Source: Candidatus Saccharimonadota bacterium (GTDB lineage: Bacteria > Patescibacteriota > Gracilibacteria > BD1-5 > UBA2023). Taken from it: a DNA stretch of 32,000 nt. The position numbers and the translations under genes are program-made. The notes under the pieces are model-generated. The model was given only the letters and a program-made list of their open reading frames with translations. It was not told the DNA's origin and searched no databases. The stretch covers positions 150,001-182,000 of the forward strand of contig BAAFHK010000002.1 in the NCBI GenBank assembly GCA_042852035.1. The letters run 5' to 3'. Below are positions 1-32,000 of the stretch, in pieces (the stretch's first letter is position 1; every line of letters starts with the position of its first letter).

Positions 1-1
1 T

Positions 2-1108
2 CTATCATTTTCAATGAAAGGTATAGCTGTTATTAAAAAGTTTTTTTTCTTACTCCCAAAGAAGAGGGAGGATGCGGTAATGCTTTTTACATCATGAAGC
101 GAATCTCTTCCTAAGGCAATTCTTCTTACTCATAAGAACATTCTTTGTGATATTGAGTGAGCTCTTGCTCTTGTTCCTTTTAAGAAAAATGAGACAATTA
201 TTTGATTCCTCCCACCATTTCATAGTTTTGGTTTTACAATAAATACGATTTTTCCATTCGTAGCACCAGTGCAAGCTGCCTATACACCAGACCCTGGTGA
301 TGCTCGAACTATAGGAAAGATTCTTTTACACACTCAAGCGAGTATTGTATCAGCAACTCCAACATTTCTTCGTATGATTCTTTCTGGAAATGAGGCTCAC
401 TCACTCACTTCACTCAAATTTGCTTTTGTGTGAGCAGAGAAATGTAACGATGAAGTATTTTCTCTTTTTCGAAAGAAGTGCCCTGAAGCTATTATTCTTG
501 AATGATATGGTATTACTGAGTGTAGTCCTATAGTGACGGTGAATCCTCTTTCAAAACAACTGAAATGATCAGCAGGAAAATTTCTTCCTACAATAATACC
601 AATGATTCGATCACTTGATAATAAAGAGTCTCTCAAAGCATGAGAACAATGAATGATTTACATTACGGGCCCAAGTATATTCTGATGATATATTGACCCA
701 AATTTGGAAAGTCCTTTTGATGAATTTGATTGAAAAAAATGGTATAAAACTTGAGATCTTGGTTATATAGATGAAGAATGATTTCTCTTTATTACTGGCA
801 GACTCAAGCGGTTTGTGAAAATTGCCTGAGAAATGATATCACTTCCTTTTATCGAGGGTATTCTTCTTGAAAAATATGGAAATCCTGAGGTTACAACTCT
901 TGCAATTGAGGCAAAAGAAGAAAATGGGAATGTCACAATTGTTGCATTCACAAATTTTGAAGAAAGTGTTGATGTAATCAATGATTACATACATACCCAT
1001 GGTGCATCAAATCTTGTAAAAATTGCAAGAGTAGAGAAGCTAAATGCTATTCCTATTCTTTGAACGGGAAAGACCGATTATAAGCAGTTAAAATCACTGA
1101 TTCAGTAG
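2..1108 (+). CDS. AMP-dependent synthetase/ligase (acyl-CoA/acyl-ACP synthetase-like), 5' end outside window
   Basis: Frame open from the window edge to TAG 1106-1108 with TGA=Gly. Adenylation motifs MLFTSGSESLPKAILLTH (Gly from TGA 95-97), [54 protein letters not shown]. Confidence 0.85.
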
Positions 1109-1110
1109 GC

Positions 1111-1137
1111 TTGTAATTCTCCACGATTACCTATAAT
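1111..1137 (+). promoter_or_regulatory. Candidate sigma70-like promoter (TTGTAA, 15 nt spacer, TATAAT) upstream of the diiron oxygenase gene
   Basis: TTGTAA 1111-1116 and TATAAT 1132-1137 lie in the 78-nt gap between stop 1108 and ATG 1187. The spacer is slightly short. Confidence 0.35.
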
Positions 1138-1140
1138 TGA

Positions 1141-1167
1141 GGGCAATACGTAATTTACGTATTGCCC
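1141..1167. repeat. Perfect inverted repeat GGGCAATACGTAA-T-TTACGTATTGCCC (terminator hairpin or operator)
   Basis: 13-nt arms at 1141-1153 and 1155-1167 are exact reverse complements, followed by TTT. It lies 33 nt after the upstream stop and 3 nt after the TATAAT box. Confidence 0.7.
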
Positions 1168-1186
1168 TTTAGAATTTCATTTTTTG

Positions 1187-2107
1187 ATGCAAAACAAACC
1201 TCATAATCCTATAATCAGGAATCTTACACGTATCTCACGAGAATCATCAAAAAGTTTCGAAGATTTTTTTGATTGGAATCAGTATAAGAAAGATGATGGA
1301 CAATACTACATGCCCCCAGAATTACTCTCGATATATGGATCAGAGTTATATGAAAAACTTACTGAGAAACAACTCCGAGAGCTCACCCGAATCGAAGCCA
1401 TACAAACACTTTATCTCTATGCCTATGCAGAAAGTGTGATGTGTTACTATATGGCACGCCATCTGGTAAAATCAGACTTTTGAAGTGAAGAACATGCTTT
1501 TATCCTCAGGGAACAAATCGAAGAGTATCGGCATCAGGATATGTTTCTCCGTGCATTAGAAATCCTTGGGAAAGATTATAAACCAATGTCAAAATTCACG
1601 AAATGGTGGACAGGATTTGAGGCAATAGTACTTCCGCCAAAGATTTTCTTTCTGCTTCAAATTGCAATTGAACTTGTAACACGTGAGATTTGAAGACTTA
1701 CATTTCCAGATGAGAGAATCCACCCGCTTGTCCGAGATCTCTGTATGATTCATGAAAGGGAAGAGGCTCGACACGTTACCTTTTCTAATGCATATATAGA
1801 AAATGCCTATAAAAGAGATGGATTTTTTATGAGAACAATTGCTGGTATATGCATAGCTCTCGATATAGCGTTTCTCCACCATTTCTACGTTTACCCCTGA
1901 ATGTATAAAAAGGCCTGAATCTCCGAAGATCTCAAATATTACAAAACAGCGAAGAAATTCATTTTAAGAAGTGAAGTGAAAAATATGATGACAGGAAGTG
2001 CTCGAGAATTTCTCTCCAAGCATTGATGGATAACATGGGCAAATGAATGGTTATTTCGTCTTCTTACAGGTATAACAAAAAATAAAATATATGGACCGAA
2101 TTCGTAA
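1187..2107 (+). CDS. Ferritin-like diiron oxygenase (AurF / acyl-ACP-desaturase-like)
   Basis: 306 aa. Two E...ExxH half-sites: YAESV...EEYRHQD and IELVT...EREEARH. Ends TAA 2105-2107, with 4 in-frame TGA codons. Confidence 0.7.
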
Positions 2108-3128
2108 AATCCTCCAACCAAAAATAGCAATCTACTCAATGGGGACGTATACACCAAGCCAAAAGATAACGAGTAGCGAAGTAGAAGAAAGAATCAGGAA
2201 AGAAAGTTCGTATACTGGTTTTCGAGAGAATTCCGTTTTTGAGATCTCTGGGACGTACACTCGATATTTTTCTGATAGCACAGAGGAGGCATCTACTCTA
2301 GCTTCTGAAGCTGCAAAAAAAGCACTCTCTTCTGCTTCTATGAAGATTGATGAAATAGATGCAATTATTTTTGCGAGCGCATCCCAAGATGTAATAGAAC
2401 CAGCTACTTGAAATAGGGTACAAACCCTTCTTTCAAGCAAAGCACCAGTGTTTGATATAAAAAACGCATGTAATAGTTTTCTTAATGGGCTCCAGGTAGC
2501 AAAAAGTCTCATATCCTCATGACAGTATTCATGTATTCTTGTATGTTCATGAGAGACTCCATCGAGAGCTATCCGTTGGGAAACCAAATCAGCAGCCGAC
2601 TTTAAGGATGCATTTGCTTGATACAATCTTTCAGATGCTGGTGTTGCTATGATCCTCTGAAAGCAGAAAGCAAAACTCCCAGAAATTGTTTTTACAGAAT
2701 TTCTTTCCAAGGGTGAGTATTTTGATGCAAGCATGATTCCTTGATGATGATCGTGTTTTCCTAGGGATACAGAGAAGCTTTTTTTTCGTTCTGATTCTCG
2801 TCGTCTTTCTGAGGCTTTCAATGTTGGAATATTGGATTTTACACAAAATACTCTAAAGAAACATCGATGGAAACTTTCAAAAGTGAATTATTTTCTTCCA
2901 CATATTGTTTCTCGATATTCAAAAGAAGTATTTTCCAATACATTTTCCCTCCCGCATCATAGAATTCTCAATTATAATTCTACTCACGGAAACATGGCCT
3001 CTTGTTCGGTCCCATTTGCATTTATTACTGAATATGAGAAGAAAAGATTTATTTCTCATGAACGAATTCTTATGGTATGACTTTGAGCCGGTGCATCATA
3101 TGCGCTTGTGTGAATAGAATTTCCTTAA
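2091..3128 (+). CDS. 3-oxoacyl-ACP synthase III-like thiolase (FabH/OleA family)
   Basis: 345 aa. Cys-His-Asn triad context: FDIKNACNSF (Cys codon 2469-2471), FLPHIVS, STHGNMASCSVPF. C-terminal MVGLGAGASYALV. ATG 2091 overlaps the upstream gene by 17 nt. Confidence 0.85.
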
Positions 3129-3164
3129 CTCTTGCAACTCATAGCATTATGGATACTATATTTT

Positions 3165-3170
3165 TATAAT
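3165..3170 (+). promoter_or_regulatory. TATAAT box 8 nt upstream of ATG 3179 (leaderless-type spacing)
   Basis: Exact TATAAT at 3165-3170. No purine-rich RBS lies between it and the ATG. Confidence 0.4.
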
Positions 3171-3178
3171 TGCTTTCT

Positions 3179-4216
3179 ATGAATACTCTGTATTTTTCTC
3201 CATATCTCACGCAATTGAGCGTATATTTTTTGATTATAACCTCTATAATCTTTTTATTTGTGGTATCCTACTGATTGAAGTATTATCGATATTTTTTCTG
3301 GAGATTTTCAGCTCTCCTCATATGAGTTCTTTTTTTTGAGTTTCTCACGAGTTCTTTGTGGGTAACGGCTCACCTTGGGACATATGGGTATCTCAATGGT
3401 GATGTGAGTCTTGTTCTTTCGTTTTTTTGGGCTTCTCTTATTTTCTCTTCTCGTATACTTTTTGATAAGATTTTTTTGAAGAAGACTCTTCTTTTGGAAC
3501 TAGGCTTTGTTTTGTGAATAACAACAATTTTCTGACTCCTGACTATTACTCTACTCAAAGAGATTGAAGTTTTTTCATACTCAAAAGAAATGCAGGAGAT
3601 TGTTCAGAGTGGTATAACTTTATTTGGTAGACCTCTTGAGGCATTGATCTATTTTCCTACATTTGTGTTTGTAACATATAGTTTTTATAAATATTGGGAA
3701 TTAGCGATGTACAATAAGCTCTATTTTCTTAATTATTCTATTCGCCCCACAAGAGATATATTTATAGTCCTTGGATCAGTTATAGCAATTTGATACCTTA
3801 TGCACCCGCTTCTTGTTTCGAATAATTTTTATACGTATCCTTTACTTTGTTTTTGAGCATTGATATTCCTCATTATCGTAAATTTCACAATTGCCTCTGC
3901 GACACATTTTTCTCTTTTTATTCGATATGTGTTTGGCACACTTTTGTTTTCAGTTTTCTTTGGTTCATTGTTGAGCTATCTTCTTTGAAAAGGTTGGATA
4001 CAAATTTCAGAGAGCCTTAAAATTAATTATACAGAAGCAACATTTTTTATTCCGGGATTTCACTTTACAGATTCTGAGGCAGTAGGAATTATGTTCTTTT
4101 CCTATTTGCTTATTGCCATAGTAAAATACTATAAGGTTGTTTTTTCTCATAAATCTATTTCAATCGATGACTCAAAAATGACATTTCGATGATGGAAGAG
4201 CCTCTTTAGTAGATAA
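3179..4216 (+). CDS. Polytopic integral membrane protein, unknown function
   Basis: 345 aa, continuous with TGA=Gly. Many hydrophobic segments rich in F/L/I/Y. An in-frame TAA at 3167 limits the start. Ends TAA 4214-4216. Confidence 0.75.
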
Positions 4217-4250
4217 TCGTATATAATATTTATTTTTTAACTTAAGCTCT

Positions 4251-4916
4251 ATGGGACTATCAGTAATAGTAAGTATTTTCTTTATTGTTGGCATTGTCTT
4301 TTCTGGAAAATATCCAATTCTATGAGCTATAGTGTGGTTCCTTATTATGAGTCTATGAGTTGCTTGAGGTACAGGAATTTTTGCTCTTATATTCGTTGAT
4401 TCTCAGCCTCAGATAGCAAATATGATTTGCATCGGGGGATTCATTGTTTGGCTGATTCTTACAGTTGGTATTATTCGAGCGTATCTTGCATTGCGAAAGC
4501 CACAGAATGTGAATATATGAACGAATGCCTCTTCCCAATCAAATACTACTCAAGGTACTTCTTTACCTCAGTCTCCAAAGATTTCTGATACTCCAAAAGA
4601 TTTAATCCAACAAAAGAAGTTAAGTCTCCGAGAGAAAATTGACGCTCTAGATATTGGCACAAAAGATACCGTCATCTTTTTTTATAAAGATGGTTCTGGT
4701 ATGAGGCTTCAGCTTAAAAATCTCGCGAAAATTGTTCAAGAAATAATCAATGAATTTCATAGAAGTGAATTTGCACCTTGAGAGCTTGAAAATCATTTCC
4801 ACTACATTAAAGAGAATTATGCAACAAGCCTTAATTCATCTGATTACTCTATTGTCTTGAAAGTCGTAGAAAGATTTGTAAAAGAATGAGGCAGGCTTGA
4901 TGTAACAACTTCATAG
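4251..4916 (+). CDS. Membrane protein (about 3 N-terminal TM helices plus soluble C-terminal domain), unknown function
   Basis: 221 aa, MGLSVIVSIFFIVGIVFSG..., then an S/T/Q-rich linker and a charged helical C-terminus. TATAAT at 4222-4227 upstream. Ends TAG 4914-4916. Confidence 0.7.
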
Positions 4917-4917
4917 C

Positions 4918-6387
4918 ATGATCTATCAATCATCATTACTTGATGAGATCGCAATACAGCTAGAAAAAAGCGATCCATTTATTATTCGATCTAACGGAGT
5001 AAGTATATCTAGAAATCAGTACAAACGAGAACTTGATTTTTTTACATATCAAATATCTTCATTTCTTTCTTGCGGTGATGTTTTTAGTGTTTGGATAGAT
5101 AATGAAATCCTTTTTTCTCAAATTATTCTTGCAGGTCTTCGATCTTGATCGGTTGCATGTTTAATTGATCCGGAATGATGAAATGCAATAGTTAAAAATC
5201 AAATCCTTGAGGCAAAAGTACAATATATATTTATAGAATGAAAAATATTTGATATATTTTTTCTAACGAGAAATCCACTTCTCCAACTACCAGTGCAATA
5301 TGTCATCGTATGATTTAGTGTCTTTGGTTTTCGGAGAAAGAAAATTCTTTGTGGGATCAGTGAAGTTCACCTCCCAGAAACAAAAAAACTTAATGAAAAC
5401 GAGCCTTCAATTATTGTTTTTACATGATGAACAACAGATGTTCCAAAATGAGTGGTACATACGCATAAATCACTTGTGGCTACCGCACAGAATTTACTGC
5501 CACTCTTCTCTCTCGTGAAACGTATGTATGTGGATATGCCACACTTTCTTCTCTTTGGATTACTTTTGGGTATTCCTATGGTAACAGGAAAGAATAGATT
5601 TTCGTCAAGAAAGGTATTTTCAATTATAAAAAAATATAATGTTGATGGATATTTCTCGCCACCGTATAGATATAATTTCCTTATTAAAAAAGGATATGTC
5701 CCAGCATCATTGAAGCATATATATATTTGATCGGCACCAGTCTATTATGGATTTCTCACAAGATTAATCTCTATTCTAAAATGAGATCAAAATATACATT
5801 GTATTTATTGAATGACGGAAATTCTCCCTATTGCAATGATTGATTGACGTGAAAAATTAGATTTCTGAAATGTTGCATGAGATATACTCTGAAGAGTATA
5901 TGGTAATATTGAAGTTAAATGCAGAAATCAAGAATTTCTTGTAAAATGACCACATGTGTCAGCATGATATTTATGAGATACAAAAAAAGAGTATATATCA
6001 ACGGGTGATTGTTGATATATTTCCGATGGTCTTCTCGTTCTGACTTGAAGAAAGAAAGATATGATAATTCGAAAGGATTTTAATATCTATCCTGCTCTTT
6101 ATGAGTCAATTATATCAAAGATTCCCTGAGTTATTGAGGTTGCCCTAGTTGGTGTATATGAGAGTAAAAATGCTGATGAGAAGATATTTCTCTTCTTGGA
6201 AGTATCATGAATAGTTTATAAAAAAGAAACAATTTTATCACTGCTTAAAAAATGAAAGTATTCCATTGATGAATTTGCTCTTCCTGATGAAATACTCTTT
6301 ATGAATCTTCCAAGGAAGTGAAGGCAGAAAAAAATTGATAAAGAAACACTTCGCCAATTTGCTAAAAAAAATTATTTATGAGGATAG
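4918..6387 (+). CDS. AMP-dependent synthetase/ligase (fatty-acyl-AMP/CoA ligase or OleC-like beta-lactone synthetase candidate)
   Basis: 489 aa. IIVFTGGTTDVPKGVVHTH (three motif Gly encoded by TGA at 5425-5430 and 5449-5451), IYGMTE, STGDCGYISDGLLVLTGRKKDMII, LPRKGRQKKIDK. Starts 1 nt after the upstream stop. Confidence 0.85.
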
Positions 6388-7262
6388 CTATACTGGGTGC
6401 TCTATGATTTGTTGGTCGAAATATAGTTCGATATTTCAAAAATAATAATGAAATATTCGCGTTTGTTCGTAGAATTGGGGATCATGAAGAATGAGTAGAA
6501 TATATTTTTTGGGATAATTCATATGAGCCCAATTTTTATGAAAAAATTGATGTTTGTATTGATTGTGTTTCTGATGTTGATTTTACGAAAAATGATACTT
6601 ATCTGATGGGAAATAATGTCTGAATATTGAAACAGACAAAGAAATTTCTTGAAGATACAAGCTGTGAGCATTATATTTATATATCAAGTTCTTCAGTATA
6701 TATGGGGAAAGATGGCATTCTCCATGAAGCTGATTGAATCGATATCAATAACTTGAGAAATTCCTATGCAAGATCAAAATATTTTGCTGAAGAGTATATT
6801 CGGAATAATTTTAAAAAATGAAAAATCACTATTCTTCGTCCTAGAGCTATATATGGAGATGATGATACGACGCTCCTTCCAAAGTTACTTTCATTACATT
6901 TTTTTTCCTATCTCATTTTTCCTTGAAATCAGAATATTTTTACTTCCGTTACACATATAGAAAACCTTCTTCATGCTCTTGATACGGTTATAAATAAGCA
7001 AACTGATTTGTATGGACACTATAATGTCTCAGATGAGAAGCAAGTTTTATATAAAGATTTGTATACAAAATTGGTTTTAAAATATGGATTTTCTAGAACT
7101 ATATCCCTTCCAGGTTTTATCATTTTTGTATTAAAGTATATATTACCCAATAAATGGGGATATATAGAAGATACATTCTCTAGAAATAAGCAGCTTGATA
7201 TTTCAAAAATTAAAACATTATGATACAATCCAAAGAAGGATTTAGACTCATTCCTTTCTTAA
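6378..7262 (+). CDS. NAD(P)-dependent epimerase/dehydratase-family SDR (OleD-like candidate)
   Basis: 294 aa. Rossmann motif MRIAILGALGFVGRNIV, catalytic YARSK, ILRPRAIYGDDD. Overlaps the upstream ligase by 10 nt. Confidence 0.8.
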
Positions 7263-7278
7263 AATTGATTCATTTTCT

Positions 7279-9501
7279 ATGTCACACAAAAAGGAAATAG
7301 TAGACGAAGTTACAGGACTTTTTCCTGTGAGTGTTAAAAAAATATTTACTCCTGAATCTATTGAGGATATACAGAAGATTCTTAAGGAGGAACCCTGAAA
7401 GATCTCAATTGGTTGAGGTCGATATAGCATGTGAGGACAAACAGCAGTATTGTGAGGTATTCAGATTGATATGAGAAAGATGAAAAAAATTCTTCATTTT
7501 GATGAAAAAAAGAAGTGTATTACCGTGGAAACGGGGATTACATGGAGAGATATACAAGATTATATTGACCCATACAACCTTTCGGTCATGACGATGCAGA
7601 CCTATTCGAACTTTACGGTGTGAGGTTCTCTTTCTGTAAACGTTCATGGGAGATATATCTGATATGGTCCACTTATTCTTTCTGTAGAAAGTATTAAAAT
7701 TATTCTTGCTGACGGTACAATAAAACTCGCGTCAAAGGTAGAGAATAGTGATATATTTTTTGCAGCAATCGGAGGGTATTGAGGTATATGAATTATTATT
7801 GAGGCAACTCTTCATCTCAAGGAGAATAGTATGCTCGAAAGAAAATATGAAGATATGGATTTACATCTCTATGGCGCCTGGTTTAGGGATAATGTGAGGA
7901 ATAATCGAGATGTTATTTTTCATAATGCTGATATATATCCGCCTCATTATAAAAAAGTTCGCGCCACAAGCTGGGAAAAGACAAAAAATCTTGCAACCAC
8001 TAAAGACGCCCTCATTTCAAGGAATTGATCGTATCCTATTCATCGGATAGCATACTTTCTTATGACCTATTTTAGATTTTGAAGACTTGATTTTGGAAAA
8101 TGGATTCGAGAATCTATTATAGATCCTCTTGTTTATGCTCATAAGGAAGTTCATTCTCGTAATTATGAGGCAAGTTATGATGTTGCAGAGCTCGAACCAA
8201 AAAGTCGAGAAAAAACCACATACGTTCTCGAGGAGTATTTTTGCCCTGTTGATAAAATAAATATTTTTGTTCCTAAAATGGCAGAAATATTTCAAAGACA
8301 TAATGCTAATATTGTAAATATTTCGATACGTCATGCCCTTCCTGACAATGGATCGATTCTAGCATGGGCAAAAGAAGAAGTTTTTGCTTTCGTGGTATAT
8401 TATAACCAAGAAACTACCTTACCTCGAAAGAGAGAGGTTGCAGTATGGACCCGGGAACTTATAGATGTCGTGTTATGAGTCGGTTGAAGATATTATCTTC
8501 CGTATCAACTTCATGGAAGTCTCTCGCAAATAAAGAAGGCTTACCCAAGGTTTCAAGAATATTGCGACATAAAGCAAAAGTATGATCCATCGTGAAAGTT
8601 CAGTAACTCTTTGCTTGAGAAGTATTACTTTGAGACTACAAAGAATAATAAAATACTTTCCTCTCGATTTCACACTATATATCATAATGAAGAGTGGAGA
8701 GATAAATTCTTTATTTTTCTTCAAAATATTTTTCATGTAGCACCTACGCATCTCTTCCATAGTCATATCTGGGATTTGATAGAAAAGCATAAAACAGATA
8801 AAGAAATCTATCTTGCTATACAGTCAACAATTTCTCAGATTAAGCCATTACTGGCAGATATTCGTTTTGGGATACCATCGCTCTATAAACAGAAGAATGA
8901 AATAGTTCAAGAGGTAAGTGAGCTTATTCCGAAAAAATGAAAATTTAATGGCTATCTTGAGGTGGGTTGAGCGGGAAGATATATACATCCAATGAAAAAG
9001 ACATACAGGATACATGGTCCAGTATACCTTGTTTCAGATGAGCCAATTGATTACTCTCCAGTTCGAGTTCTCGAAAGATGAAAAATTTCGAAATACAATA
9101 CAAAAAGGCTCACTTATTCTTCCGAAGACCTGGAGCATATACCTACAAATTCTCTTGATTTAGTGAGTATATTTATCGGACTTCATCATGCTCCAGTATG
9201 ACTTTTGGATAGTTTTGTATCTGCACTTTCATCGAAACTTCGTAAATGAGGAATTCTTATTTTAAGAGATCATAATGTTCATGATCCATTTATTTCCCAT
9301 TTTGTTTCGATAGCTCATGATATATATAACGCTTGAACGGGTATTTCATGGGATCAAAATGAAAGTGAACAAAGAAACTTTCGAAGTACCCAAGAATGGA
9401 AAGATTTACTCTGAAATCATGCTTTGAGATTCTGCGAGAAAGAAGTCCTACAACAACATGATCCAACACTCAATACGCTCATGTGTTTTATAAAAGAATA
9501 A
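7279..9501 (+). CDS. Fusion protein: N-terminal FAD-binding (PCMH-type) oxidase domain plus C-terminal class I SAM-methyltransferase-like domain
   Basis: 740 aa in a single frame. FAD domain ISIGGGRYSMGGQ, VGGSLSVNVHG, AAIGGYGGIGIIIEATL, GGRYYLPYQLH. MTase motifs YLEVGGAGRY (I), VYLVSDEP, LDLVSIFIGLHH (II), LRKGGILILRD (III). Confidence 0.8.
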
Positions 9502-9512
9502 AAAAATTTCTT

Positions 9513-10574
9513 ATGGGAAAAATTTTCAAAGTTATACTTCATCTTGTTTTATTCATCATTATTGTTGTTATAATTGTACTTTCATTTTCTTGGTATAATT
9601 ATAATCGAGGAGTTAAAAGTGTAGATATTGGTCTTCAGGAACGTATTTTTTCTTGAGTCTCAATAGATAATATCTTTTCGACCGATACCTGATCTATACG
9701 CAGAACATGAAATACATTTATGAGCATACCGGAATGGTATATAGTAACTCTCTCGGCAGATTATACTAAATGGCTTGAAGAAGGGAAAAATCCGAGTGAC
9801 TTTCCATACTTTCATTATCTGAGTGATATGTGGTATATGTATGGGAGAATTACCGCTATAATGGATGGGAAAATACCGAGAGATTATGAATACCATACCA
9901 TGGTGCAGGTTATATGACTTAGTACCACTTTAGAGTTTTGATCTAAAGCGATTTATGAATTAACCCTCTGAAGAATAACATCATTTTTTTGATATAACAC
10001 ACAAGAGGATCGTTATTATCGGGATTTTTCTCGGAAATATGTGAATTTTATACTTCTTCGTCCATGGTATGAATTTCCATTTCGTGAGCTTAGAGAAGGC
10101 TTCCGGTTGAGAGAGTATAGTATAAGAGGTATAGAGCGATTTGCTATAATCTCTATTGAGTTATATTTAAAAGAGAAATATGCAAAACTCATTGAAGATG
10201 CGGCCCATTCGAATTTTGCCACTCCTGATATATGGACTAGCCTGGAGTGAAATTTTTCAAAAAAAACTATAAGTACATTAGGTCTGAAAGCAGAGGAGAT
10301 GACTTGAGGGATAAGAATCCCTCGTTATTATCCATTCACTGAAATTTTTCCTGATATTATTGAGAATAGAGAAAATCGAGTATATTCTATAGCATGAAAT
10401 AAATATATCGTGAGTGAGTTTTTATGAGCTGAACAAGACACGAATGCATTTCTTTCATTTCCCCTCCCTACAGAGCCGAAAATCTTTCGATCCTATTATT
10501 TTACAAGTATTGATTGATTAAAAACAAACCTCTCTAATCCAAAAAGTACCCTTATACATATTTATGATTTTTAA
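9513..10574 (+). CDS. N-terminally membrane-anchored hypothetical protein
   Basis: 353 aa. N-terminal TM KVILHLVLFIIIVVIIVLSF. W/Y/F-rich soluble part. I recognise no family. Confidence 0.7.
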
Positions 10575-10576
10575 TT

Positions 10577-11875: not shown

Positions 11876-12445
11876 ATGCATTTTGAGTATCATAAAAAAT
11901 CATGAGAAAAAATTGATGAAGCAAAAAAAAGTGGTTTTTTCTCTCTGGGTGATCTTTCTGATGAGAGTGTTCTTGCAAGATACTATATTTCGAGATATTT
12001 TCATGATACATATTCTTTCATTCCATTCCTAGATAAAGATAGAAATGGTTTTCCACTGCCGATAATCTCCTGAAGCCTCGGAACATTTTATTGGTCAATT
12101 TCTCACTCAGATGAATATGTTGCATGGATGATAGATAAAAATCCTTGCGGTATTGATATTGCTCAATATTTTATTCGAGATGAATCACTTCTTTCCAAAC
12201 ATGATGAAGAAGAATATGAAATACTCTGAGAAAAATCATGGAAAAATTTTTATAGACTTTGGACTTCAAAAGAGGCACTTATAAAGAAACTTTCTCTCAC
12301 TCTTGATGACATGGAGAAAATTAAGCTTTTTTCTTCAGATAAAGAACAACTCGTATTTGTATTTTTCTCCGAATCCCATACAATTACCACAATTCAAGAG
12401 GATAAAATTTTTATTTCCTTTACTCCATCATATGAATCGATTTAA
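11876..12445 (+). CDS. 4'-phosphopantetheinyl transferase (Sfp/EntD type)
   Basis: 189 aa. SISHSDEYVAWMI, PCGIDIA, FYRLWTSKEALIKK. ATG abuts the upstream stop (11873-11875). Confidence 0.8.
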
Positions 12446-17792: not shown

Positions 17793-17793
17793 T

Positions 17794-21695: not shown

Positions 21696-22379
21696 ATGAG
21701 TATGAGTCCAATCAACATTCTTATTTCTCAATATTCTTTCTTGGGACGAGAAAAGAACGGATTGTTGACAAATACAAAAGCATATTTTGATGATACATTC
21801 TTAACTGAAAAAATCCTTTTTATTTGATTTTGAGGGACTATCTCATCTTGATATAGTCCTAGCCAAGAAACTATCATTCCACTTATTGATTCCCCAGCCT
21901 TAAGAAGTGTTGATTATTTAAATAATTTCTGAATATCAGCGATAGAATATAACCACATACCTCTTTTAGCTAAAGATAGTCGAATGATAGATGATGAGGA
22001 TATCTATAAATTATTAGATGTTATATTCCTTTGTCCAAATCAGAAGATTTGTATTACAGTAGGAACATATCTTGGTCCTCGAGTTGCTCTGATTCTATTC
22101 CTACTTGCTTCGGAATTAGATAATAAAAAAGTTGTATTTACTTGAAGTATGCTTCCATCTGGTTTTGCTAGTTCAGATGCTGATGCAAACATATGGAGTG
22201 CTCTTACTCTCTTAGAAATGTATACGAAGTACTTTCAGGAAATACCAAAAGTTGCCATAGTTTTTCATGGTCGCATATATGACTCAAAAGAAGAAATAGA
22301 AAAATTAGATTTACATCCTGAAAGATCGAAAGATATTATTCTTGAATACCCAGATTTTACTATCCCAATAATATCTTAG
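21696..22379 (+). CDS. Asparaginase/glutaminase-family protein, N-terminal domain only
   Basis: 227 aa. ILFIGFGGTISSG (GGT motif), KDSRMIDDEDIYKLL, ICITVGTYLG (in place of HGTDT), KKVVFTGSMLPSGFASSDADANIWSAL. Starts 4 nt after alaS. Confidence 0.6.
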
Positions 22380-22389: not shown

Positions 22390-23670
22390 ATGTTAGGAAT
22401 CTTTCTAGGATACTATCTTTTGTTTCATTATTCGGCCAAGGTTATTTCACAAATACCTGTGGTTTCAGTGAATTATGTTGATACAGGATATAATCCTGAC
22501 TATATCGAGGTACCAAAAGGAACATTAGTCCTGTTTTTGAATCATTCGTCATATCCTATGTGGACCGCTTCAGATCCACACCCTGTACATACTGATTATT
22601 CAGTTTTTGATGCAAAAAAATCATACGGAACTGGAGAAATATTCCCATTCTTTTTTAAAGAGACGGGTACGTATGCTTGGCATAACCATGAGAAATCTGA
22701 TCATAGAGGGATTGTACGAGTTTATGATCCTAAAAATCCACTTCTATCCATAGATAAGACAAAAAAGGAACTGAGAGAAACTCGGGATAAATTTCTCGCT
22801 ATGCTTGATCCTCGAGATGATACCACAGTTGGGCATATGATAGATACGCTTGAGGCAGATACTAAACTTTCACGTAACTGCCACGATATGGCTCATGACC
22901 TTGGACATCGTGCCTATGAGTACTATGGATTTTCTCGGGCCATGACTTTTGGTACTGGAGTTGAGAATACTTCCGTCGATGATATATGTGCGGGCGGGTA
23001 TATGCATGGCATACTAGAAGAGTTGTTTCTTCATCATAAAGAACTCCAAAAAACCCCAGAAAAGGTATGTGCATCGGTGAATGAATTACATAAATGAAGT
23101 TGCTATCATGGTGTGGGACATGGCGTTATGTTTGCAATGAAACGAAATATATCTAATTCTCTTGCGTCCTGTCGCACTATTTCAAATCAGACATATGTAT
23201 ATAGATGTTTTGAATGAGTATGGATGGAGATGTTTTGGTGAGATACGGGTCATGCGGGAGCTGATTCACTTGGTTGGAATCAAGATAGACCTTTCGATCG
23301 TTGTATAAAAGCTGAGCAAGATGAAAAACCAACCTGTTTTCTTTATGCACATTTAGGATACTTACGATATCATTCTGGAGATTTTACGGGTGTGATACGA
23401 TTTTGTACAGCATCGAATCTTACCGATTCTGATAAGCAGTTTTGTTTGAAATGAGTTGGAATTACTATGATGAAGCATTTTACGAGCCATCATCTTGATA
23501 AGACAGAATGACTTGTAAAGAATCTTTCCTATAATCAGAAATTTTCATATTATCAGTGAGTTCTCTGATACTCTATATTATCTAATGTTCCACGAGCTTC
23601 ATTGGCAGGTTTTTGTGAGAAGCTTCTCAATGATACAAATATCTGTAAAGAGGCGCTCAAAACACAGTAA
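22390..23670 (+). CDS. Membrane-anchored protein: cupredoxin-like N-domain (no Cys ligand) plus Cys/His-repeat C-domain
   Basis: 426 aa. N-terminal TM. EVPKGTLVLFLNHS...GTYAWHNHEKSDHRGIVRV resembles a plastocyanin-type C-terminus with Trp where Cys is expected. Then repeated C-x2-3-[GA]-x2-H-G-like motifs. Confidence 0.6.
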
Positions 23671-23679: not shown

Positions 23680-23937
23680 ATGCAATATCCAAGATTACAT
23701 TCTCGCTGGCGCCACTATAAATCTCAATGATGAGACGATCATACGTACGAGGTTCTTGGGGTATTTATCCACTCAGAATCGCATGAACCGATGGTGGTCT
23801 ATCGCCCACTCTATATGGTTCCAGAAGATTCTTGGGTCTACGGATTTCCAGGGGCAGTTCGACCACTTTCGATTTGGTATGATGAAGTCGAATATAAAGG
23901 GGAACATGTCCAGAGATTTGCAGAAATTATTTCATAA
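23680..23937 (+). CDS. DUF1653-like small protein
   Basis: 85 aa. RWRHYKSQGGDDHTYEVLGVFIHSESHEPMVVYRPLY...VRPLSIWYDEVEYKGEHVQRFAEI matches the YRHYKG...Y.V...HSE...VVY..LY...RP...F...V..RF pattern. It lies in a different frame from track ORF 23585..23959. Confidence 0.7.
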
Positions 23938-23959
23938 ATTATTTACATATGTGACTTGA

Positions 23960-24205
23960 ATGACTTGCACGATTAAAATCTGAAATTGATGCAAATGGTC
24001 TCAGAATTCATGGACCGTCGCATATCTTTATTTGAGATGAAGTGACCCCAGTCTGAAATATTACAAAAAGATGAAAAATCGTTATCCCTTTATGAACGGT
24101 TCTAAAAGTAGAAAATATACTTGTAAGAAGTCAGGATGGTGCGGGGCTTTGATTTGAAAAAAGAATCACCTTTGATTGATTAGAGGGTGAATTCTCTCCG
24201 AATAA
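23960..24205 (+). CDS. Tentative small basic Cys-containing ORF (81 aa), very uncertain
   Basis: Open only with TGA=Gly, with 6 TGA in 81 codons. CTIKIGNGC and CKKSGWC pairs. No recognisable family. A competing 38-aa ORF sits in another frame. Confidence 0.25.
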
Positions 24206-24223
24206 GTTTAAAAAACATAAATA

Positions 24224-24850
24224 ATGAAATACGTATCATACATCCCTGAAAAAATTACTTCTGATATGAAATGTATCATTATGCTCCATGGAGTATGATC
24301 AAATGAAGGGGATTTATTTTCACTTTCAGATTATTTTTGAAAAGATGTATATGTTTTTTCATTACGATGACCTTTTGTTCTTAGAATCGGGAGCTATGCA
24401 TGGTATCCTGTAGATTTTTCTAGTGGAAAGGCTATTTATAAAAGTGAAGATGTAGAAAGCTGATATAATGAAATAGCGTCTTTTATAAGCGAAATTGTCG
24501 AGAAGTATAACATCCCACCTGAAAAAATCTATCTTATGGGATTCAGTCAATGAGCTATCATGAGCTATTATACTCTCTGGAAGTCTCCAGAGACCATATG
24601 AGGGATTATAGCTCTTTCTTGAAGAATTATCAGAGAAATCCATTTCGCATCACTCGATAGCCAAAAATATAAGAATAAGAAAATATTTGTTGGACATGGT
24701 ATGATGGATCAAGTGATCCCATTTCTAGAAATAGAGGGGGTAAAAAAATACCTTTCCCAATTAGGAAGTGCCTCACAAATTCATAAATATCCAATCTGAC
24801 ATACTATCAGTACTGACGAACTTCAAGATATAAAGATTTTTCTGAAATAA
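24224..24850 (+). CDS. Phospholipase/carboxylesterase-family alpha/beta hydrolase
   Basis: 208 aa. IIMLHGVGSNEGDL, nucleophile elbow LMGFSQGA, VGHGMMDQVIP, PIGHTIS. Confidence 0.8.
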
Positions 24851-24893: not shown

Positions 24894-26330
24894 ATGAAAA
24901 AACGCACAAAAATAATTGCAACTGTTTGACCAGCTACAGCATCAAGTGAGATGCTTCTGGCTCTTTCTCGGGCAGGAGTGAATATTATTCGATTTAATTT
25001 TTCTCATGCGGATTATGATTCCGCTACATTGATAATCGATCGCATCCGAGACCTTAATAAAAGTGGGAAAACTTCCCTCGCTCTTCTTCTTGATACAAAA
25101 TGACCAGAGCTTCGAACCGGCGATTTGAAGGAGAAAATCCAATATCAAATAGGAGAAAGATTTCGTATTTACACTCAGGGGTCCAATTCGATATCCTGAG
25201 AAAAATCCATTACTTGCGACTATCCTTATTTAATTGAGGATATTTCTATTTGAGATGCTATTGAAATTGATAGTGGTCTTTTTCATGCAGTTGTCATAGC
25301 GAAGGGTTCTGATTTTCTTGATGTTGAAGCAAAAAATGATGCCATTATATGATCACGGAGACATGTGAATCTTCCGGGGATTAAAATCCGTATGCCAGGA
25401 ATAACAGAGAAGGATAAACAAGATCTCCTTTTTGCCATAAAAATGGGTTTTCACTTCATAGCAGCTTCATTTATAAGAACGGAGCAAAATGTGAGAGAAA
25501 TCAGGGAGTTTCTTGATGAAAACTCTGGAGATGAAATTAAAATTATTTCAAAGATTGAAAATGAAGAGGGTATAGAAAATCTTGACTCGATAGTTGGGAT
25601 ATCTGATGGTGTTATGGTTGCTCGTGGGGATCTCTGAATCGAGGTGCCAATAGAGAAAGTCCCAAAATATCAGAAACGAATTATCGATCTTTGTCGTCAA
25701 AGAGGGAAATTTGTAATCGTAGCTACCCATATGCTAGAGAGCATGATAGAACATCCGTTTCCCACGAGAGCGGAAGTTTCTGATATATTTCGGGCTGTAC
25801 TTCAGTGAGCTGATGCTACGATGCTTTCCTGAGAGACAACGACAGGAAAGTATCCCATTGAATCCGTTGATATGATGCGAAGTGTTATCCTCGAAGCAGA
25901 GTGAGAACTCGAACATAAGCACCATGAGTATGTGAGTGATTGACTTACAGAAAGGGATATCGAAAAAAAATACCTTATACGAAGCGCCTTACATATTGCT
26001 GAGGAGCTTCATCTTAAAACAGTCCTAGTATTTACAAAATCTTGACGACTTGCTCGTCTTGCCGCGGCGTATAGGCCTAATATATCCATAGAAGCTTTTT
26101 CTGGAAATCCTTCATCAGTTGGCTATATGCAGGTTCTTTATGGGGTGACGCCACATATACTTCCTCATTGGTGAGACCACCAGAAAAATCTAGAAGATGC
26201 CCTAAAGCTTCTTCTAGATGCAGGTACTATAAATCTTGATTCAAAGATTATAGCAGTTACTGATGTTGTGAAAAATTCAAAAGAAATTCCTGTAATGGAG
26301 ATTATTCGTGTCGGTGATATATTTCACTAA
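24894..26330 (+). CDS. pyk: Pyruvate kinase
   Basis: 478 aa. [89 protein letters not shown]. Several motif Gly residues are TGA. Confidence 0.95.
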
Positions 26331-26340
26331 TCATATTTTT

Positions 26341-27669
26341 ATGATGGAGTATTCTTATGGCATAACTGTAATTTCCATCATAATCTCCCTTCTCGTTATA
26401 ACAGTATTTACCTCATTGCACTACCGAAAAGTGCTCAAGAAGAATGCTTATATTGATAATCTCGAACGAGAACTCCATATCCTTGAGAAGTCTATTTCTG
26501 AAACGGTTGATCTTATTACTCTCAGGCCACTTTTAAAAAAAGAACTCACAAAGATTTTTCAAACAAAGGTAGCATCTTTAGAGATGTATCAAGAATGAGA
26601 GAATCCATGATTTTTTGAGGTTATTCGAGAGTATTTTCGAGAATATCCTTCTGATCGTGCCTTTGCAAACAATGAGAATTTTATTGCTAATCTCGATGAT
26701 GAGTTACTCAGGAAAAAACTCCAAGGTATTATCCCCCCGGAGATTGCTTTTATTTTTCCTATATTCAGTACCCAAGGCTTTCATATCGGAAATCTTCTTC
26801 TATGAATAAAACGTTCATGAATGACTTATATAAAGGATGAGGTAGAGTTTCTCAAAGAATTCTCATTTTTTATAGAAATACATCTAAAGTATATACGAAC
26901 TTATACGCTTATGCATGAGTTTTCGGCCTTACTTGATGAAAAAGTGGATACAAAAACAATCGCCTATAATAACCTCATAAATCGACAGAAAGAGTTTATT
27001 AAGGTTATATCACATGAAGTGCGTTCACCTTTAACTTCTGCAATATTTCAGGTAGAGTCAGCCATAGAGAGCCTTGAAGGTGAGAGTTTTCAAAAAAATT
27101 CAATCCTTGTAGAGCTCCAAGAACTTCGTGCTCAACTTGTTCGGACCGGGTGACTTATCTCAAAGCTTTTTTCGGTGGAGTACTATGATAATGATAATGT
27201 GAGTCTTTTTCGGGAGGCTATACATTTACCTAAGTTTCTTGAATATGAGATTGAGCTTTTTTCACGTACACACCAAGATATTGCGTTCATTTCACAGATT
27301 GATATAAATGTAGGTTTTGTTCCAATTGATAAAGTACAATTTCAGCAAGTCCTCACCAATCTTGTTGATAATGCAATAAAGTTTACCTCAACAACAAATC
27401 CAATAGTGTATCTGTCGGCAAATAAATTAGACAATAGACTCATTATTACCGTTGAAGATAACGGAAAAGGCTTTTCAAAGAATTCTATGAAATATATATT
27501 TGATAAGTATAATACAGGAATAAATAAGAATATATGACTTGGTCTCTGACTCTACTTGTGTCGTAAGATAGTTACGATGCATAATGGGACTATTAATGCC
27601 TCGAATTCTAATAAATATTGATGAGCTTGTTTTACAATAAGCATCCCAATTTCTCATCAATTTTCCTAG
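26341..27669 (+). CDS. Sensor histidine kinase (single N-terminal TM, cytoplasmic input region)
   Basis: 442 aa. TM ITVISIIISLLVITVFTSL. H-box ISHEVRSPLTS, N-box LVDNAIKF, G1 VEDNGKGF, G2 GLGLGLYLCRKIV (two Gly from TGA). ATG 26341 preferred over GTG 26308, which overlaps pyk. Confidence 0.9.
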
Positions 27670-27670
27670 T

Positions 27671-28336
27671 TTATTCGAGAATATATCATTCATTGTAGAG
27701 GGTTTTTAGAGTAAAAGGACTTCCTATCTTTCTCCTCATCTTTGATAGGGTTGCATTAATCGTATTGTCAGATACATCAGTTGATTCACGCGATCACCAT
27801 ACCGCACTTATTAGGGATTCACGATTTATAAGTCTTCATTGTTCTCGTAAAAATAACTCGAGAATTAACGATTCTTTGTGAGTAAGGTAAATTCGATTCT
27901 CTCATACATGCGTCTCCTTTTTGTCTACATTGTATTCGATATTTTTATAACGAAGTGATGCTCAAGTAAAGAGATTGAGAGGTCTTCTCATAAGTGCCCT
28001 TACTCGAGCAATCATAATTTCAGGGACGAGCGGCTTCACCATATAGTCGTCACATCCGAGGTTAAGACCATAAGTTATCCTCTCGGCATCGCCATATCAT
28101 GAGATAATGAGAATAGGAACTTTCGATTCAATGCTCTTCCTGAGCCATTCTACAATAGCAAATCCCGAACCATCAGAAAGAGATATATCTATTATGTAGA
28201 GGTGTGACTCAGTATCTGGGTGAGTCATGAATTCTTTATATCCATGATATACATTTACGACGAAGCCAGCACTTTGGAGTTTTTTCTCCATTTTAGCTGT
28301 AAGTATTTTTTCATCATCAATGAGTGTAATACGCAT
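27671..28336 (-). CDS. OmpR-family response regulator (receiver plus winged-helix)
   Basis: 221 aa. MRITLIDDE...LYIIDISLSDGSG...PILIISGYGD...GCDDYMVKP. C-terminus LRYKNIEYNVD...LTHKESLILELF...TINATLSKMRRKIG. Stop TAA (complement of 27671-27673) lies 1 nt from the kinase stop. Confidence 0.9.
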
Positions 28337-28534: not shown

Positions 28535-28541
28535 TAGATTC

Positions 28542-29000
28542 ATGTCTCATATACTTGATACTGAAGAAAATTTTTATGTAGCAACTAAACTCTGTCTTTT
28601 TCATAAAGGTAAAGTACTGACTCTTTTTGAAAAATATCCAGGACTTCCATTATGGCGAGATCTTCCTGGGGGAAAAATATCAAAAGCTGACAAAGATCAT
28701 GACATTTTCTTTACTCTGAGTCGAGAAATTCAGGAAGAACTTTGATTAGAAATAAAATTTGACGAAAAAAATACAGAACTTTTCCTCGTTGATAAAAAAT
28801 ATGAACATACTACAAAGGGCGAGGTAAGACCGTTTATCTTTCTTTGTTATAGATATGAAATCGATATTGATCCGAAAATTATCCTTACTGAGCATAGCTC
28901 TTCTGAATGGATTACAGAAGATGAAATTGGTACCTTATCCGATTGGAGACCTGGATTTGATTTTATAGTCAAAAAAGCATTTACTCATTATTTTTCATAA
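28542..29000 (+). CDS. Nudix hydrolase
   Basis: 152 aa. Nudix box GGKISKADKDHDIFFTLSREIQEELGL (final Gly from TGA 28743-28745). Confidence 0.85.
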
Positions 29001-29009
29001 TTATCTTCT

Positions 29010-30881
29010 ATGAATTTCTCAACGAATTGGAATCTTTCTCGATACTTTTATAGTGGTCTTGATGATGCAAAGCTTCTTTCAGATATTGCTTCTATAGTAC
29101 CAATGGCGAAAGCATTTGCAGATGTATACAGGGAAAAGTTTGGAAAATTTACAGTACCAACTGAAATTCTTGAATTCTATACTGATTATACAAAGCTTTC
29201 CTATGATATAGCAAAGCCGAGTTACTATCTTTTTTATCGTTCATCACTTGATACCCAAGATCTTGATGTTACAAAGAAGATGTGAGAAGTAGACTATTTC
29301 TATACAGAGGCTTCAAACATACTTCTTTTTGTCTCTCAAGGTTGGAAGGAGATTGGCTATGATCGTATAATGGAGTGGTCTCGAGATCCAATACTCGAGA
29401 AATACAAAAACGATCTTTTATCTACAGCAGATGGCATTAAGTATATTCTCGGGGAAAGAGAAGAGTATGTTCTCAATCTCAAATCAAGACCTCTTGGTCT
29501 TGCAAATTCTCTTCATGATGAACTTACAGGATCATATGAGTTTACTATGAATATTCACTGAGAAGAGAAGGTTCTCACGGAGGAAGAGGTACGAACATAT
29601 CGACAGCATACAGATAGGAATATACGAAGAGAGGCGTATAGTTCACTTCGACGAGTTTATAATTCGAAACAAAACCAAATTGCACTTGGGAATATATATT
29701 CCTCTATCGTGAAGGATTGGAGTACAGAAATCCAGATGCGAGGATATCCAAAGAATGTCATGGCTCAAAGAAATCTTTCAGAACAGATGGATGATGAAGT
29801 TGTCGATATGCTACTTTCGGAAGTTGAACATGCATACCCGATATATGCGCGCTATCTTCGAGCAAAAGCAAAAATGCTTTGACTTCGCTATCCTGAGTGA
29901 AACGAAGACCCAAAGAAATGACAGGATCAACTAGATTCTTCCGTTCTGGTTCAGGATGAACAAGTAAATGGAAATCAACCTTTCAGTATCTGGGATACCT
30001 GAGCCCCTATAGGTCATTCTGATAAGGACTTTACCTTTGAAGAAGCTTATAATCTCCATCTTTCTGTGATGAAGGATTTCGATAAGGATTTCCATGATTA
30101 TTCGATAAGAATGATCGAAGAAGAGCGTATTGATGCCTTCCCAAGAAAAGGGAAACGAGGAGGAGCCTTTGCAAGTTATAGAAAAGGGGATGAGAGTTTT
30201 GTTCTTCTGAATTTTACGGGAAAACTTCGTGATGTCTCGACTATTTCACATGAGCTTGGTCACGCTATCCATGGACACCTCTCTCAAGTACAAGAAGCTC
30301 CTGTATACGATTCACCACTTTCGATGGCAGAGACTGCCTCTATATTTTCTGAGATGCTTCTTGGTGAGAAGGTAAAATCTCTGGTATCTGCTGAAGAATA
30401 TAAAGATTATCTCAATGAACGACTTTCTGATATTTTTGCGACCATTTTTCGACAGGTTCAGTATGTCATATTTGAGAGGAAGGTCCATGAGATTATCCAT
30501 TCTGGACAAGAAGTAACCTATAAAGAACTTAATAGCATGTGGAGAGTTGAGCAAGAGAAGCTCTATGGATGAGTAGTGAAATATGATGTTCCAGGAGAAG
30601 AAGAAAGTGGTTGGTCGATGATTCCACATATCTTCCATACACCATTTTACTGTTATGCGTATGCCTTCGGAAATCTTCTCACCTTTGCGCTCTATCATAA
30701 GGTGCATGTGGAGAAATCCCTCTCTGTAGAGGATTACAAGGATATTCTTCGTTCCTGAGGCAGTGAACGTCCACGAGATCTTCTAAATAAATACGGTATC
30801 GATATTGCTTCCCCAGAGTTTTATCGTGCAGGTCTTGCAGAGGTGGAGCATATGGTAGAGGAGTTTGAGAAACTTATATAA
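29010..30881 (+). CDS. pepF: Oligoendopeptidase F (M3B family zinc metallopeptidase)
   Basis: 623 aa. GGAFASY, zinc motif [31 protein letters not shown]. Confidence 0.9.
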
Positions 30882-30882
30882 T
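30877..30882 (+). promoter_or_regulatory. TATAAT box 8 nt upstream of ATG 30891 (leaderless-type spacing), overlapping the pepF stop
   Basis: TATAAT at 30877-30882. A second TATAAT at 30884-30889 is too close to the ATG to serve it. Confidence 0.3.
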
Positions 30883-30890
30883 TTATAATC

Positions 30891-31523
30891 ATGCCTCTCA
30901 TCCAATCTCCTCTTGCATTCACACTTCCTTGGTATGATGCTGGAATCCCTAAAGGATACTGGCAGGAAAGGGTGGTACCAGGAGGGAAAGTTCTCATGAC
31001 GCTTAACCCAAAAATACCAGGAAAACCTGTCGATAGTGAGTATCTTGGGCTTATAGCATACTCTCCGAACCCTGGTTCGGTCCGATTTACTTGAGATGAA
31101 TTTTTTCCACAATTCTCCGAAGCAGGGTATATTTGACAGTGTGTTGCATTTGCAAAGGCGGTATCTGATCAAAGAAATACCCCCACAAAAGATTGGAAGC
31201 CAGGCATTTCGCTTATCGATTTTGTGAATACTCCTGATGCGAAAAATCTATGAAAATACCAAGGAATGATGATTGCCTGTTTCGATGGAAAATCCGATTA
31301 TTCTCTTGCTTTAGCAAACCGCAAACATGTAGCTATACTTCTCAAGATAAACTTTACATCGACGGGAAAGCCTGAAAGTATTGTTGTCGTTGATCAAAAT
31401 TATTATAACTATGCTCCGTATGATTTTTATGCTTGAAAGATAGTGAAGCATACTATTGTGTGGGGTGCCCCCCTACAAAAAGGGGTAGGGTATGCTAGAA
31501 ATTATCATATTGTGAGTATATAA
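30891..31523 (+). CDS. Papain-fold CHAP/NlpC-P60-like amidase candidate (BPSL0067-like)
   Basis: 210 aa. GYIGQCVAFAKAV (Cys codon 31140-31142), later KHVAILL and VVVDQN, in the Cys...His...polar order of this fold. Confidence 0.55.
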
Positions 31524-32000
31524 ATGAAAACACTTCTTCGTAAAGACATTCCGGAGGACTTTGTTTATTATCGAACAGGATCGATAGTTTTTTTTGAGTA
31601 TTTGAAGCAGTTTCGTACCTATATAGTCCAAAAAGTTCATAAGCGATGAGATTTTTTTTCAGCTACTCAGATTTTTCCTGGATTCTGGTCCATTACTGCA
31701 GAGAAAATTGACACTGAACTTTCGAAGGTGATTCTCAAAAAATATCGAATATTTCATGGAATTATCTGGTGGACTCCCATGAGAAGAATAGCGAAACCAA
31801 AATGATGGTTAGGAATGCCAACCTGGTGGGTGAAACGAGATATTCATTCTTCCCGGAGCGCGTTCTCTATTCTTGATCAAGTAAACTATTGGGAAAAATG
31901 GTCATCTAAGGCACGAGCTCATCGCAGGAAGGTGCTGGAGCATATTGAGAATGGGAGCTTTCGTATAAGAAAAGATGTAACTCTTGATGAATTTCTTTTT
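31524..32000 (+). CDS. Hypothetical protein, possible FemAB/GNAT-like acyltransferase, 3' end outside window
   Basis: 159 codons open to the window edge. W-rich. YWEKWSSKARAHRRKVLEHIENGSFRIRKD resembles the W..l..k.R..irka.k.G motif of FemAB/Acetyltransf_6 proteins. ATG abuts the upstream stop. Confidence 0.55.

Follow-up and report, generated by a model that had tools for sequence, protein, structure and literature searches.

The window analysed here is a 32,000-bp stretch (35.3% GC) of contig BAAFHK010000002.1, and the subject of this report is the meaning of the codon UGA in its genes. Frames that stay open between TAA and TAG stops tile the plus strand from end to end; adding to this tiling the minus-strand response-regulator gene (27671-28336) and two small open reading frames (ORFs; 23680-23937 and 23949-24224) gives 28 gene models, 27 on the plus strand and 1 on the minus strand, that make up 98% of the window (Table 1). 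With stops limited to TAA and TAG the longest ORF reaches 1384 codons, while under the standard bacterial code (translation table 11) no ORF exceeds 268 aa, and those of 100 aa or more account for just 40% of the window. As controls, making TAA or TAG a sense codon instead gave longest ORFs of only 274 and 332 codons, respectively, and mononucleotide shuffles gave none longer than 246 codons.

The 10,480 codons of these gene models include 262 in-frame TGAs, at least one in each of the 28, and not a single internal TAA or TAG. In the two remaining frames of these genes, TAA occurs 448 times and TAG 292 times. All 27 stop codons that fall inside the window are TAA (20) or TAG (7), the 28th gene leaving the window at its 3' end, and Pfam domains span the in-frame TGAs uninterrupted. 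TAA and TAG are depleted overall (observed/expected 0.46 and 0.50), so that off-frame ORFs are generally long as well. The first-pass annotation, made from the letters alone, had described long frames broken only by TGA and 27 coding sequences ending at TAA or TAG, and both descriptions agree with these counts; each of the 13 TGA triplets for which it gave coordinates is in frame and has the peptide context described. Its reading of two triple TGA runs (2742-2750 and 17466-17474) as Gly-Gly-Gly fared less evenly: both are in-frame runs of TGA, but the three glycines are individually unconfirmed, the first run lying opposite W-N-K of Xanthomonas OleA in a badly aligned stretch and the second within a membrane segment of a protein that has no Pfam match. 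The statement that standard-code annotation is meaningless here was apt, as table 11 breaks up every gene. On the minus strand at 2132-2821, antisense to KASIII, lies a TGA-free table-11 ORF of 229 aa. Just four table-11 ORFs in the window reach 150 aa, this one among them, and gene prediction under the standard code would report it, spuriously, as a gene.

Four independent lines of evidence, namely Pfam scores, residues in outgroup structures, codons of relatives and overall composition, point to glycine as the amino acid inserted at UGA. For each of ten proteins, three translations, in which every TGA was read as X, G or W, were compared with Pfam, and the score of the best family was taken (Table 1). 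Summed over the ten, the scores were 1270.8 bits for X, 1434.6 for G and 1221.4 for W, which places glycine 213 bits above tryptophan, and the ranking G>X>W held in all ten proteins. Some families, MFS_1 for example, reached their threshold with the glycine translation alone. A comparison of this kind, like the tally of residues at TGA columns that follows, had been suggested along with the original claim of a UGA-to-glycine reassignment, and both bear that claim out.

The structure-based test was open to all 20 residues. We aligned pyruvate kinase and alanine-tRNA ligase (AlaRS), with X at each TGA, to four reference structures from standard-code organisms (pyruvate kinase of G. stearothermophilus and E. 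coli, and two bacterial AlaRS) and tabulated the residue opposite each codon. Glycine stands opposite TGA in 22 of 34 pairs, a share similar to that found for the glycine codons GGA (20/33) and GGT (22/30), and tryptophan in none of the 34. TGG, by comparison, lies opposite Trp or Phe in these alignments. Counts made by eye against the top PDB hits of three proteins of greater divergence bring the total over five proteins to about 28 Gly and 1 Trp out of 61 residues; those other than glycine occur at variable positions. In the acyl-ACP ligase gene at the left edge of the window, 7 of the 15 TGAs lie opposite a glycine of 4-coumarate-CoA ligase.

Relatives allow the same question to be asked at the level of codons. 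We scanned 185,579 genomes, one per species, for pyruvate kinase genes with the motif V-A-R-G-D-L-TGA-(I/V)-E-x-P, and nine contigs matched. Seven of them bear the name Gracilibacteria, Absconditabacteria or 'Peribacteria' in their titles, and the titles of the other two give no lineage. The parent genome is not among them, the DNA identity of these nine loci to the window gene being about 70% at most. In a codon-level alignment of the pyruvate kinase genes of the window and nine relatives, the codons opposite the TGAs of the window are TGA 27 times, GGN 26 times and TGG never. Conversely, the window codons opposite the TGAs of the relatives are TGA 27 times, GGN 34 times and, again, never TGG. 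This interchange of TGA with GGN, to the exclusion of TGG, indicates that TGA evolves as a synonymous glycine codon. The composition agrees: GGN (4.33%) and TGA (2.44%) together give 6.8% glycine, a normal value, TGG alone (1.04%) gives a normal proportion of tryptophan, and TGA is the most-used glycine codon of the window (262, as against 180 GGA).

We relied on DNA codon alignments and outgroups from the Protein Data Bank (PDB) because protein-level alignments of this clade are contaminated by spurious tryptophan. Pyruvate kinase homologues in public protein collections include the same Gracilibacteria proteins with W at some columns, among them records named 'uncultured bacterium (gcode 4)', and these W columns are apparently the product of gene calling with table 4. 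As such W residues are mixed at the same columns with G, which stems from table-25 translation or from GGN codons, the set of 120 pyruvate kinase homologues drawn from the database does not constitute an independent test.

One alternative is that UGA encodes tryptophan (table 4), the code of Mycoplasmatales and of a number of insect endosymbionts. In its favour, UGA is plainly read as sense here, many database pyruvate kinases of relatives do carry W at TGA columns, and one TGA lies opposite a tryptophan of OleA. Nevertheless, the tryptophan translation scored below even X in Pfam for each of the ten proteins, the outgroup structures and the codons of relatives lack tryptophan opposite TGA altogether, and table 4 would raise tryptophan to 3.5% of residues and leave glycine at just 4.3%. 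Taken together, the Pfam scores, the relatives' codon alignment and the outgroup structures refute this reading, which we regard as extremely improbable; UGA = Gly outperforms UGA = Trp in every test that we ran. A second alternative is the standard code, with the TGAs as true stops in heavily pseudogenised or mis-assembled DNA, or as selenocysteine or programmed-readthrough sites. It is no more than a formal possibility, although ARAGORN does label the UCA-anticodon tRNAs described below as 'SeC', a label that comes purely from the anticodon. A tRNA of the selenocysteine type is roughly 90 nt long, and the tRNA(UCA) genes found are ordinary 74-nt tRNAs. The frame-specific absence of TAA and TAG across 28 genes with 262 TGAs, the full-length Pfam domains that cross them, and the conservation of TGA positions between relatives, at invariant glycine sites, refute the standard code, whose probability we consider vanishingly small.

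It is also conceivable that the window belongs to a phage or another mobile element with UGA = Gly and not to a cellular chromosome, given that 27 of 28 genes lie on one strand and that coding density is very high. Its genes, however, are of the housekeeping and metabolic kind (AlaRS, pyruvate kinase, PepF, a two-component system and transporters), no phage structural or replication family was matched in Pfam or NCBIfam (the PHROGs phage library was not searched), and the segment, whose nearest relatives are Gracilibacteria genome bins, is part of a 290-kb contig from a metagenome-assembled genome (MAG); a mobile element is therefore exceedingly unlikely. Some observations do weigh against the glycine reading itself. 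About half of the TGAs occupy positions that vary among homologues and have no fixed residue, and are thus non-discriminating; the one TGA opposite a tryptophan of OleA, in the badly aligned stretch mentioned above, is discordant; and the 32,000 bp contain neither a tRNA gene nor a release-factor gene. On balance, we conclude that the window is almost certainly an ordinary chromosomal segment of an uncultured member of the Gracilibacteria (Candidatus Altimarinota, BD1-5) in which UGA encodes glycine (table 25) and translation terminates at UAA and UAG only, as the first-pass annotation had proposed for the codon.

A second reassignment has been predicted in this part of the tree, with both CGA and CGG read as tryptophan in Absconditabacteria and CGG alone in some Gracilibacteria (PMC8629427). 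We found no evidence for it in the structure alignments, in the codons of relatives or in Pfam scores. CGA is a major arginine codon of the window (128 of 431 Arg codons, 1.3% of all codons), is paired with Arg in 17 of 32 cases in the alignments with the four solved structures, and is found opposite AGA or CGT at conserved sites of relatives; on these grounds CGA = Trp is rejected. CGG is rare, with 22 codons, and the evidence on it is thin. In the outgroup alignments it falls at variable positions, opposite Arg in 0 of 8 pairs and opposite Trp in none, and in relatives it is matched by AGA, CGT or AAA. Reading CGG as Trp raised no Pfam score and lowered six (AurF by 3.7 bits, pyruvate kinase 5.6, ALO 3.8, AlaRS 1.9, HisKA 1.2 and Epimerase 0.2; about 16 bits in total). 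In the AurF-like protein CGG falls on the arginine of the EExRH-type di-iron motif. Since Pfam scores never improve and relatives carry AGA, CGT or AAA, CGG = Trp is judged unlikely. CGG might instead be ambiguous or unassigned here, an intermediate stage of the reassignment predicted by Codetta for some Gracilibacteria, because it never falls on an arginine conserved in the outgroups (0/8) and because several relatives have purged CGA and CGG from pyruvate kinase and this genome has not; we consider this very unlikely. Five of the nine relatives (L002, L003, L005, L007 and L008) have neither CGA nor CGG in pyruvate kinase, and this loss, set against the free use of CGA here, fits the reported purge and reassignment in part of the clade. 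Apart from UGA, all codons examined keep their standard meaning in the window, CGA and CGG included.

We infer the decoding machinery of this genome from its lineage; the window itself has no Rfam match. According to the identity rule used in PMC8629427, a tRNA(UCA) charged with glycine has G1:C72, C2:G71, G3:C70 and U73. We scanned metagenome contigs for tRNAs with a UCA anticodon, a GCG...CGC acceptor end and discriminator U73, and obtained at least 120 loci, the GCG...CGC-U acceptor end being demanded by the search pattern itself. ARAGORN, on which the tRNA(UCA) calls rest, reports an ordinary 74-nt tRNA(UCA) in at least 71 of these metagenome contigs. Among the matches listed there are 21 sequence variants of a single highly conserved gene, almost all of the contigs that bear it have 30-40% GC, and they show the window's own pattern of reading through TGA, with an ORF coverage of mostly 0-0.7 under table 11 versus about 1-2.3 with TAA and TAG as the only stops. 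On two of the tRNA(UCA) contigs, PPDK (24 TGA) and DnaK (5 TGA) gain 41 and 17 bits, respectively, with glycine over tryptophan at TGA, so that the tRNA is physically linked to UGA = Gly decoding. The conserved tRNA(UCA) of the at least 71 recoded loci (L016, L021, L029 and L053 2084-2157 among these) has G, not A, at position 37, an anticodon loop CUUCAGC and a 10-nt D loop, and among the matches listed it is often the first gene of a cluster in the order UCA-Ala(UGC)-Tyr(GUA)-Arg(UCU)-Glu(CUC)-Leu(UAA). When the tRNA(UCA) was folded by minimum free energy, no cloverleaf resulted (z = -1.46). Comparison of the window genes with these contigs yielded just a response regulator of 28% identity and a short match to an ABC ATPase; with no close homologue there, the contigs cannot be tied to this species. 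A glycine-type tRNA(UCA) of the parent genome, if present, would probably be close in sequence to GCGGATATGATGTAGTTGGTGTAGCATAGCAGACTTCAGCTCTGTTTGTACGGGTTCGAGTCCCGTTATCCGCT.

For the release factors the evidence comes from the literature. No prfB was detected, and prfA was present, both in a closed genome of the Gracilibacteria and in every further BD1-5 genome that was available in 2019 (PMC6851277), and the two 'Gracilibacteria' that are not recoded according to Codetta possess release factor 2 (RF2) and lack the tRNA (PMC8629427). In the window UGA is a sense codon in every gene, occupies glycine positions and exchanges with GGN as a synonymous codon would. The mechanism that we propose behind this is modelled on the lineage: the codon would be read by a UCA-anticodon tRNA of its own, bearing the identity elements for glycyl-tRNA synthetase given above, and loss of prfB, the RF2 gene, would leave no competitor at UGA, with RF1 serving both UAA and UAG.

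The assignment to the Gracilibacteria/Absconditabacteria type of recoded lineage, also put forward in the first-pass annotation, is confirmed by the public record, our placement being based on best hits and record names. With glycine at TGA, the pyruvate kinase matches at 100% identity the protein GAB0174975.1, deposited as 'MAG: pyruvate kinase [Candidatus Altimarinota bacterium]' (taxid 363464), and exact glycine translations of five window genes are deposited (GAB0174959.1, GAB0174967.1, GAB0174969.1, GAB0174974.1 and GAB0174975.1), all on one 289,822-bp contig. The tryptophan translation of pyruvate kinase has no exact match in the protein collection searched. The public record has thus already been annotated with table 25. 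The next relatives of the pyruvate kinase share at most 82% identity, Gracilibacteria-named proteins among them, and Vampirococcus lugosii (Absconditabacteria) shares 56%. Shulgina & Eddy 2021 (PMC8629427) list taxid 363464 as Gracilibacteria, with a Codetta result of UGA->G, and the gTranslate preprint equates the users of table 25 with GTDB class JAEDAM01. Four of the species-representative MAGs in our motif scan (L001, L002, L005 and L009) are titled 'uncultured Candidatus Peribacteria', and their pyruvate kinase genes have 5-15 TGAs in frame, one of them at the invariant RGDL-G site. Table 11 is the code usually applied to Peribacteria, and in these four genomes the taxonomic label and the genetic code appear to disagree.

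Table 1. Gene models of the 32,000-bp window, translated with stops at TAA and TAG only. X/G/W, Pfam bit scores with X, Gly or Trp at TGA; =, identical to the deposited protein when TGA is read as Gly.
Gene product	Coordinates	Strand	In-frame TGA	Stop	Family matches and remarks
Aas-like acyl-ACP ligase/AMP-binding enzyme, C-terminal part (5' end cut off)	2..1108	+	15	TAG	PF00501 X/G/W 102.8/131.0/98.1; NF006386 301.8 bits, below cutoff
AurF-like di-iron oxygenase	1187..2107	+	5	TAA	PF11583 127.5 bits
KASIII/OleA-like thiolase	2091..3128	+	11	TAA	Includes triple 2742-2750; PF08545/PF08541 G>X>W; best PDB match Xanthomonas OleA 3row
Apparent membrane protein (judged from sequence)	3179..4216	+	8	TAA	No family match
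Hypothetical protein, hydrophobic N-terminus	4251..4916	+	6	TAG	
Second adenylate-forming enzyme	4918..6387	+	25	TAG	TGA 5% of codons; PF00501 X/G/W 60.0/92.7/57.5; = GAB0174959.1
NAD-dependent epimerase/reductase	6378..7262	+	7	TAA	PF01370 X/G/W 44.3/50.7/40.4
FAD-binding oxidase (FAD_binding_4 + ALO), long C-terminal extension	7279..9501	+	20	TAA	PF01565 X/G/W 75.4/84.2/69.9
Hypothetical protein	9513..10574	+	12	TAA	No family match
C92 (YiiX-like) amidase-domain protein	10577..11875	+	6	TAA	PF05708 60.5 bits
4'-phosphopantetheinyl transferase	11876..12445	+	3	TAA	PF01648
Major facilitator superfamily (MFS) transporter	12432..13637	+	11	TAA	PF07690 above threshold with G translation only
1376-aa protein	13662..17792	+	38	TAG	Includes triple 17466-17474; no Pfam match
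ABC transporter ATPase	17794..18405	+	4	TAA	One TGA in Walker A GPSGS-G-KTT (17914-17916); PF00005 X/G/W 67.8/82.0/63.9; = GAB0174967.1
FtsX-like permease	18368..19606	+	10	TAA	PF02687
Alanine-tRNA ligase	19718..21691	+	9	TAG	PF01411 X/G/W 342.9/356.9/337.0; PDB alignments; = GAB0174969.1
Asparaginase-like protein	21696..22379	+	5	TAG	PF00710
Hypothetical Cys/His-rich protein	22390..23670	+	7	TAA	
DUF1653 protein	23680..23937	+	2	TAA	PF07866 55.8 bits
Small hypothetical ORF	23949..24224	+	8	TAA	92 codons; no family match; least certain model of the window
Phospholipase/carboxylesterase (Abhydrolase_2)	24224..24850	+	8	TAA	PF02230 X/G/W 94.9/110.9/87.0; = GAB0174974.1
Pyruvate kinase	24894..26330	+	12	TAA	PF00224 X/G/W 363.6/388.9/357.2; PDB alignments; codon alignment with 9 relatives; = GAB0174975.1
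Sensor histidine kinase	26341..27669	+	9	TAG	Includes G2 box 27535-27537, 27547-27549; PF02518 X/G/W 69.7/82.5/65.4
OmpR-type response regulator, sole minus-strand gene	27671..28336	-	6	TAA	PF00072 + PF00486
Nudix hydrolase	28542..29000	+	1	TAA	TGA in Nudix box EEL-G-L (28743-28745); PF00293
M3 oligoendopeptidase (PepF-like)	29010..30881	+	8	TAA	PF01432 143.9 bits
Hypothetical protein	30891..31523	+	4	TAA	
Hypothetical protein, cut off by window end	31524..32000	+	2		

The first twelve consecutive genes (2-13637) resemble a single lipid or secondary-metabolite cluster, which would be unusual for a reduced genome of the candidate phyla radiation. The cluster opens with the C-terminal part of the Aas-like ligase, the AurF-like oxygenase, the OleA-like KASIII and two apparent membrane proteins without a family match. 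The second adenylating enzyme that follows has a weak match to olefin beta-lactone synthetase, and the NAD reductase has weak matches to OleD and to thioester reductases; the remainder comprises a 740-aa DprE1/ALO-like FAD oxidase, the hypothetical protein at 9513-10574, the C92 amidase, an Sfp-type phosphopantetheinyl transferase and the MFS transporter. Every NCBIfam match in the cluster is far under its curated cutoff, and no carrier protein was seen among these genes. The adjoining 1376-aa protein shows, by eye, a hydrophobic N-terminus, one C-terminal membrane segment that holds TGA-TGA-TGA, and a Ser/Pro-rich tail. For the small ORF at 23949-24224, the NCBI accession numbering leaves room for two coding sequences, which suggests that it is annotated there.

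In practical terms, an annotator of this genome must use table 25, as table 4 would put tryptophan at about 2.5% of positions, catalytic glycines included. The finding is correct but already known, and the deposited record already applies the code; scientifically it adds nothing new, the reading of UGA as glycine in this clade having been known since 2013 and confirmed by proteomics (Hanke et al. 2014, PMC4032931, as cited in PMC6851277).

The system that the window resembles most closely is that of the table-25 lineage itself, in which UGA = Gly has been described for Gracilibacteria (BD1-5/GN02) and Absconditabacteria (SR1) (Campbell 2013 and Rinke 2013, as cited in PMC8629427; Sieber 2019, PMC6851277). 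The window shares with it a sense UGA in every gene on glycine positions, UAA and UAG as the only stops, 35% GC and Gracilibacteria relatives, and does not differ from it as far as UGA is concerned; the tRNA and the loss of RF2 are known from the lineage and not from this genome. The extended code of Absconditabacteria, in which CGA and CGG are also predicted to encode tryptophan (PMC8629427), has the UGA reassignment and the wider clade in common with the window. It differs in that the window keeps CGA as a major arginine codon and that, in every Pfam domain with a CGG, reading it as arginine scores at least as well as reading it as tryptophan. The table-4 systems of Mycoplasmatales, Entomoplasmatales, Hodgkinia, Nasuia, Zinderia, Stammera and others offer a broader parallel, as there too a tRNA(UCA) has captured UGA, and the genomes concerned are small, AT-rich and typically without RF2. 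Those systems, however, insert tryptophan at UGA, whereas in the window the codon stands for glycine.

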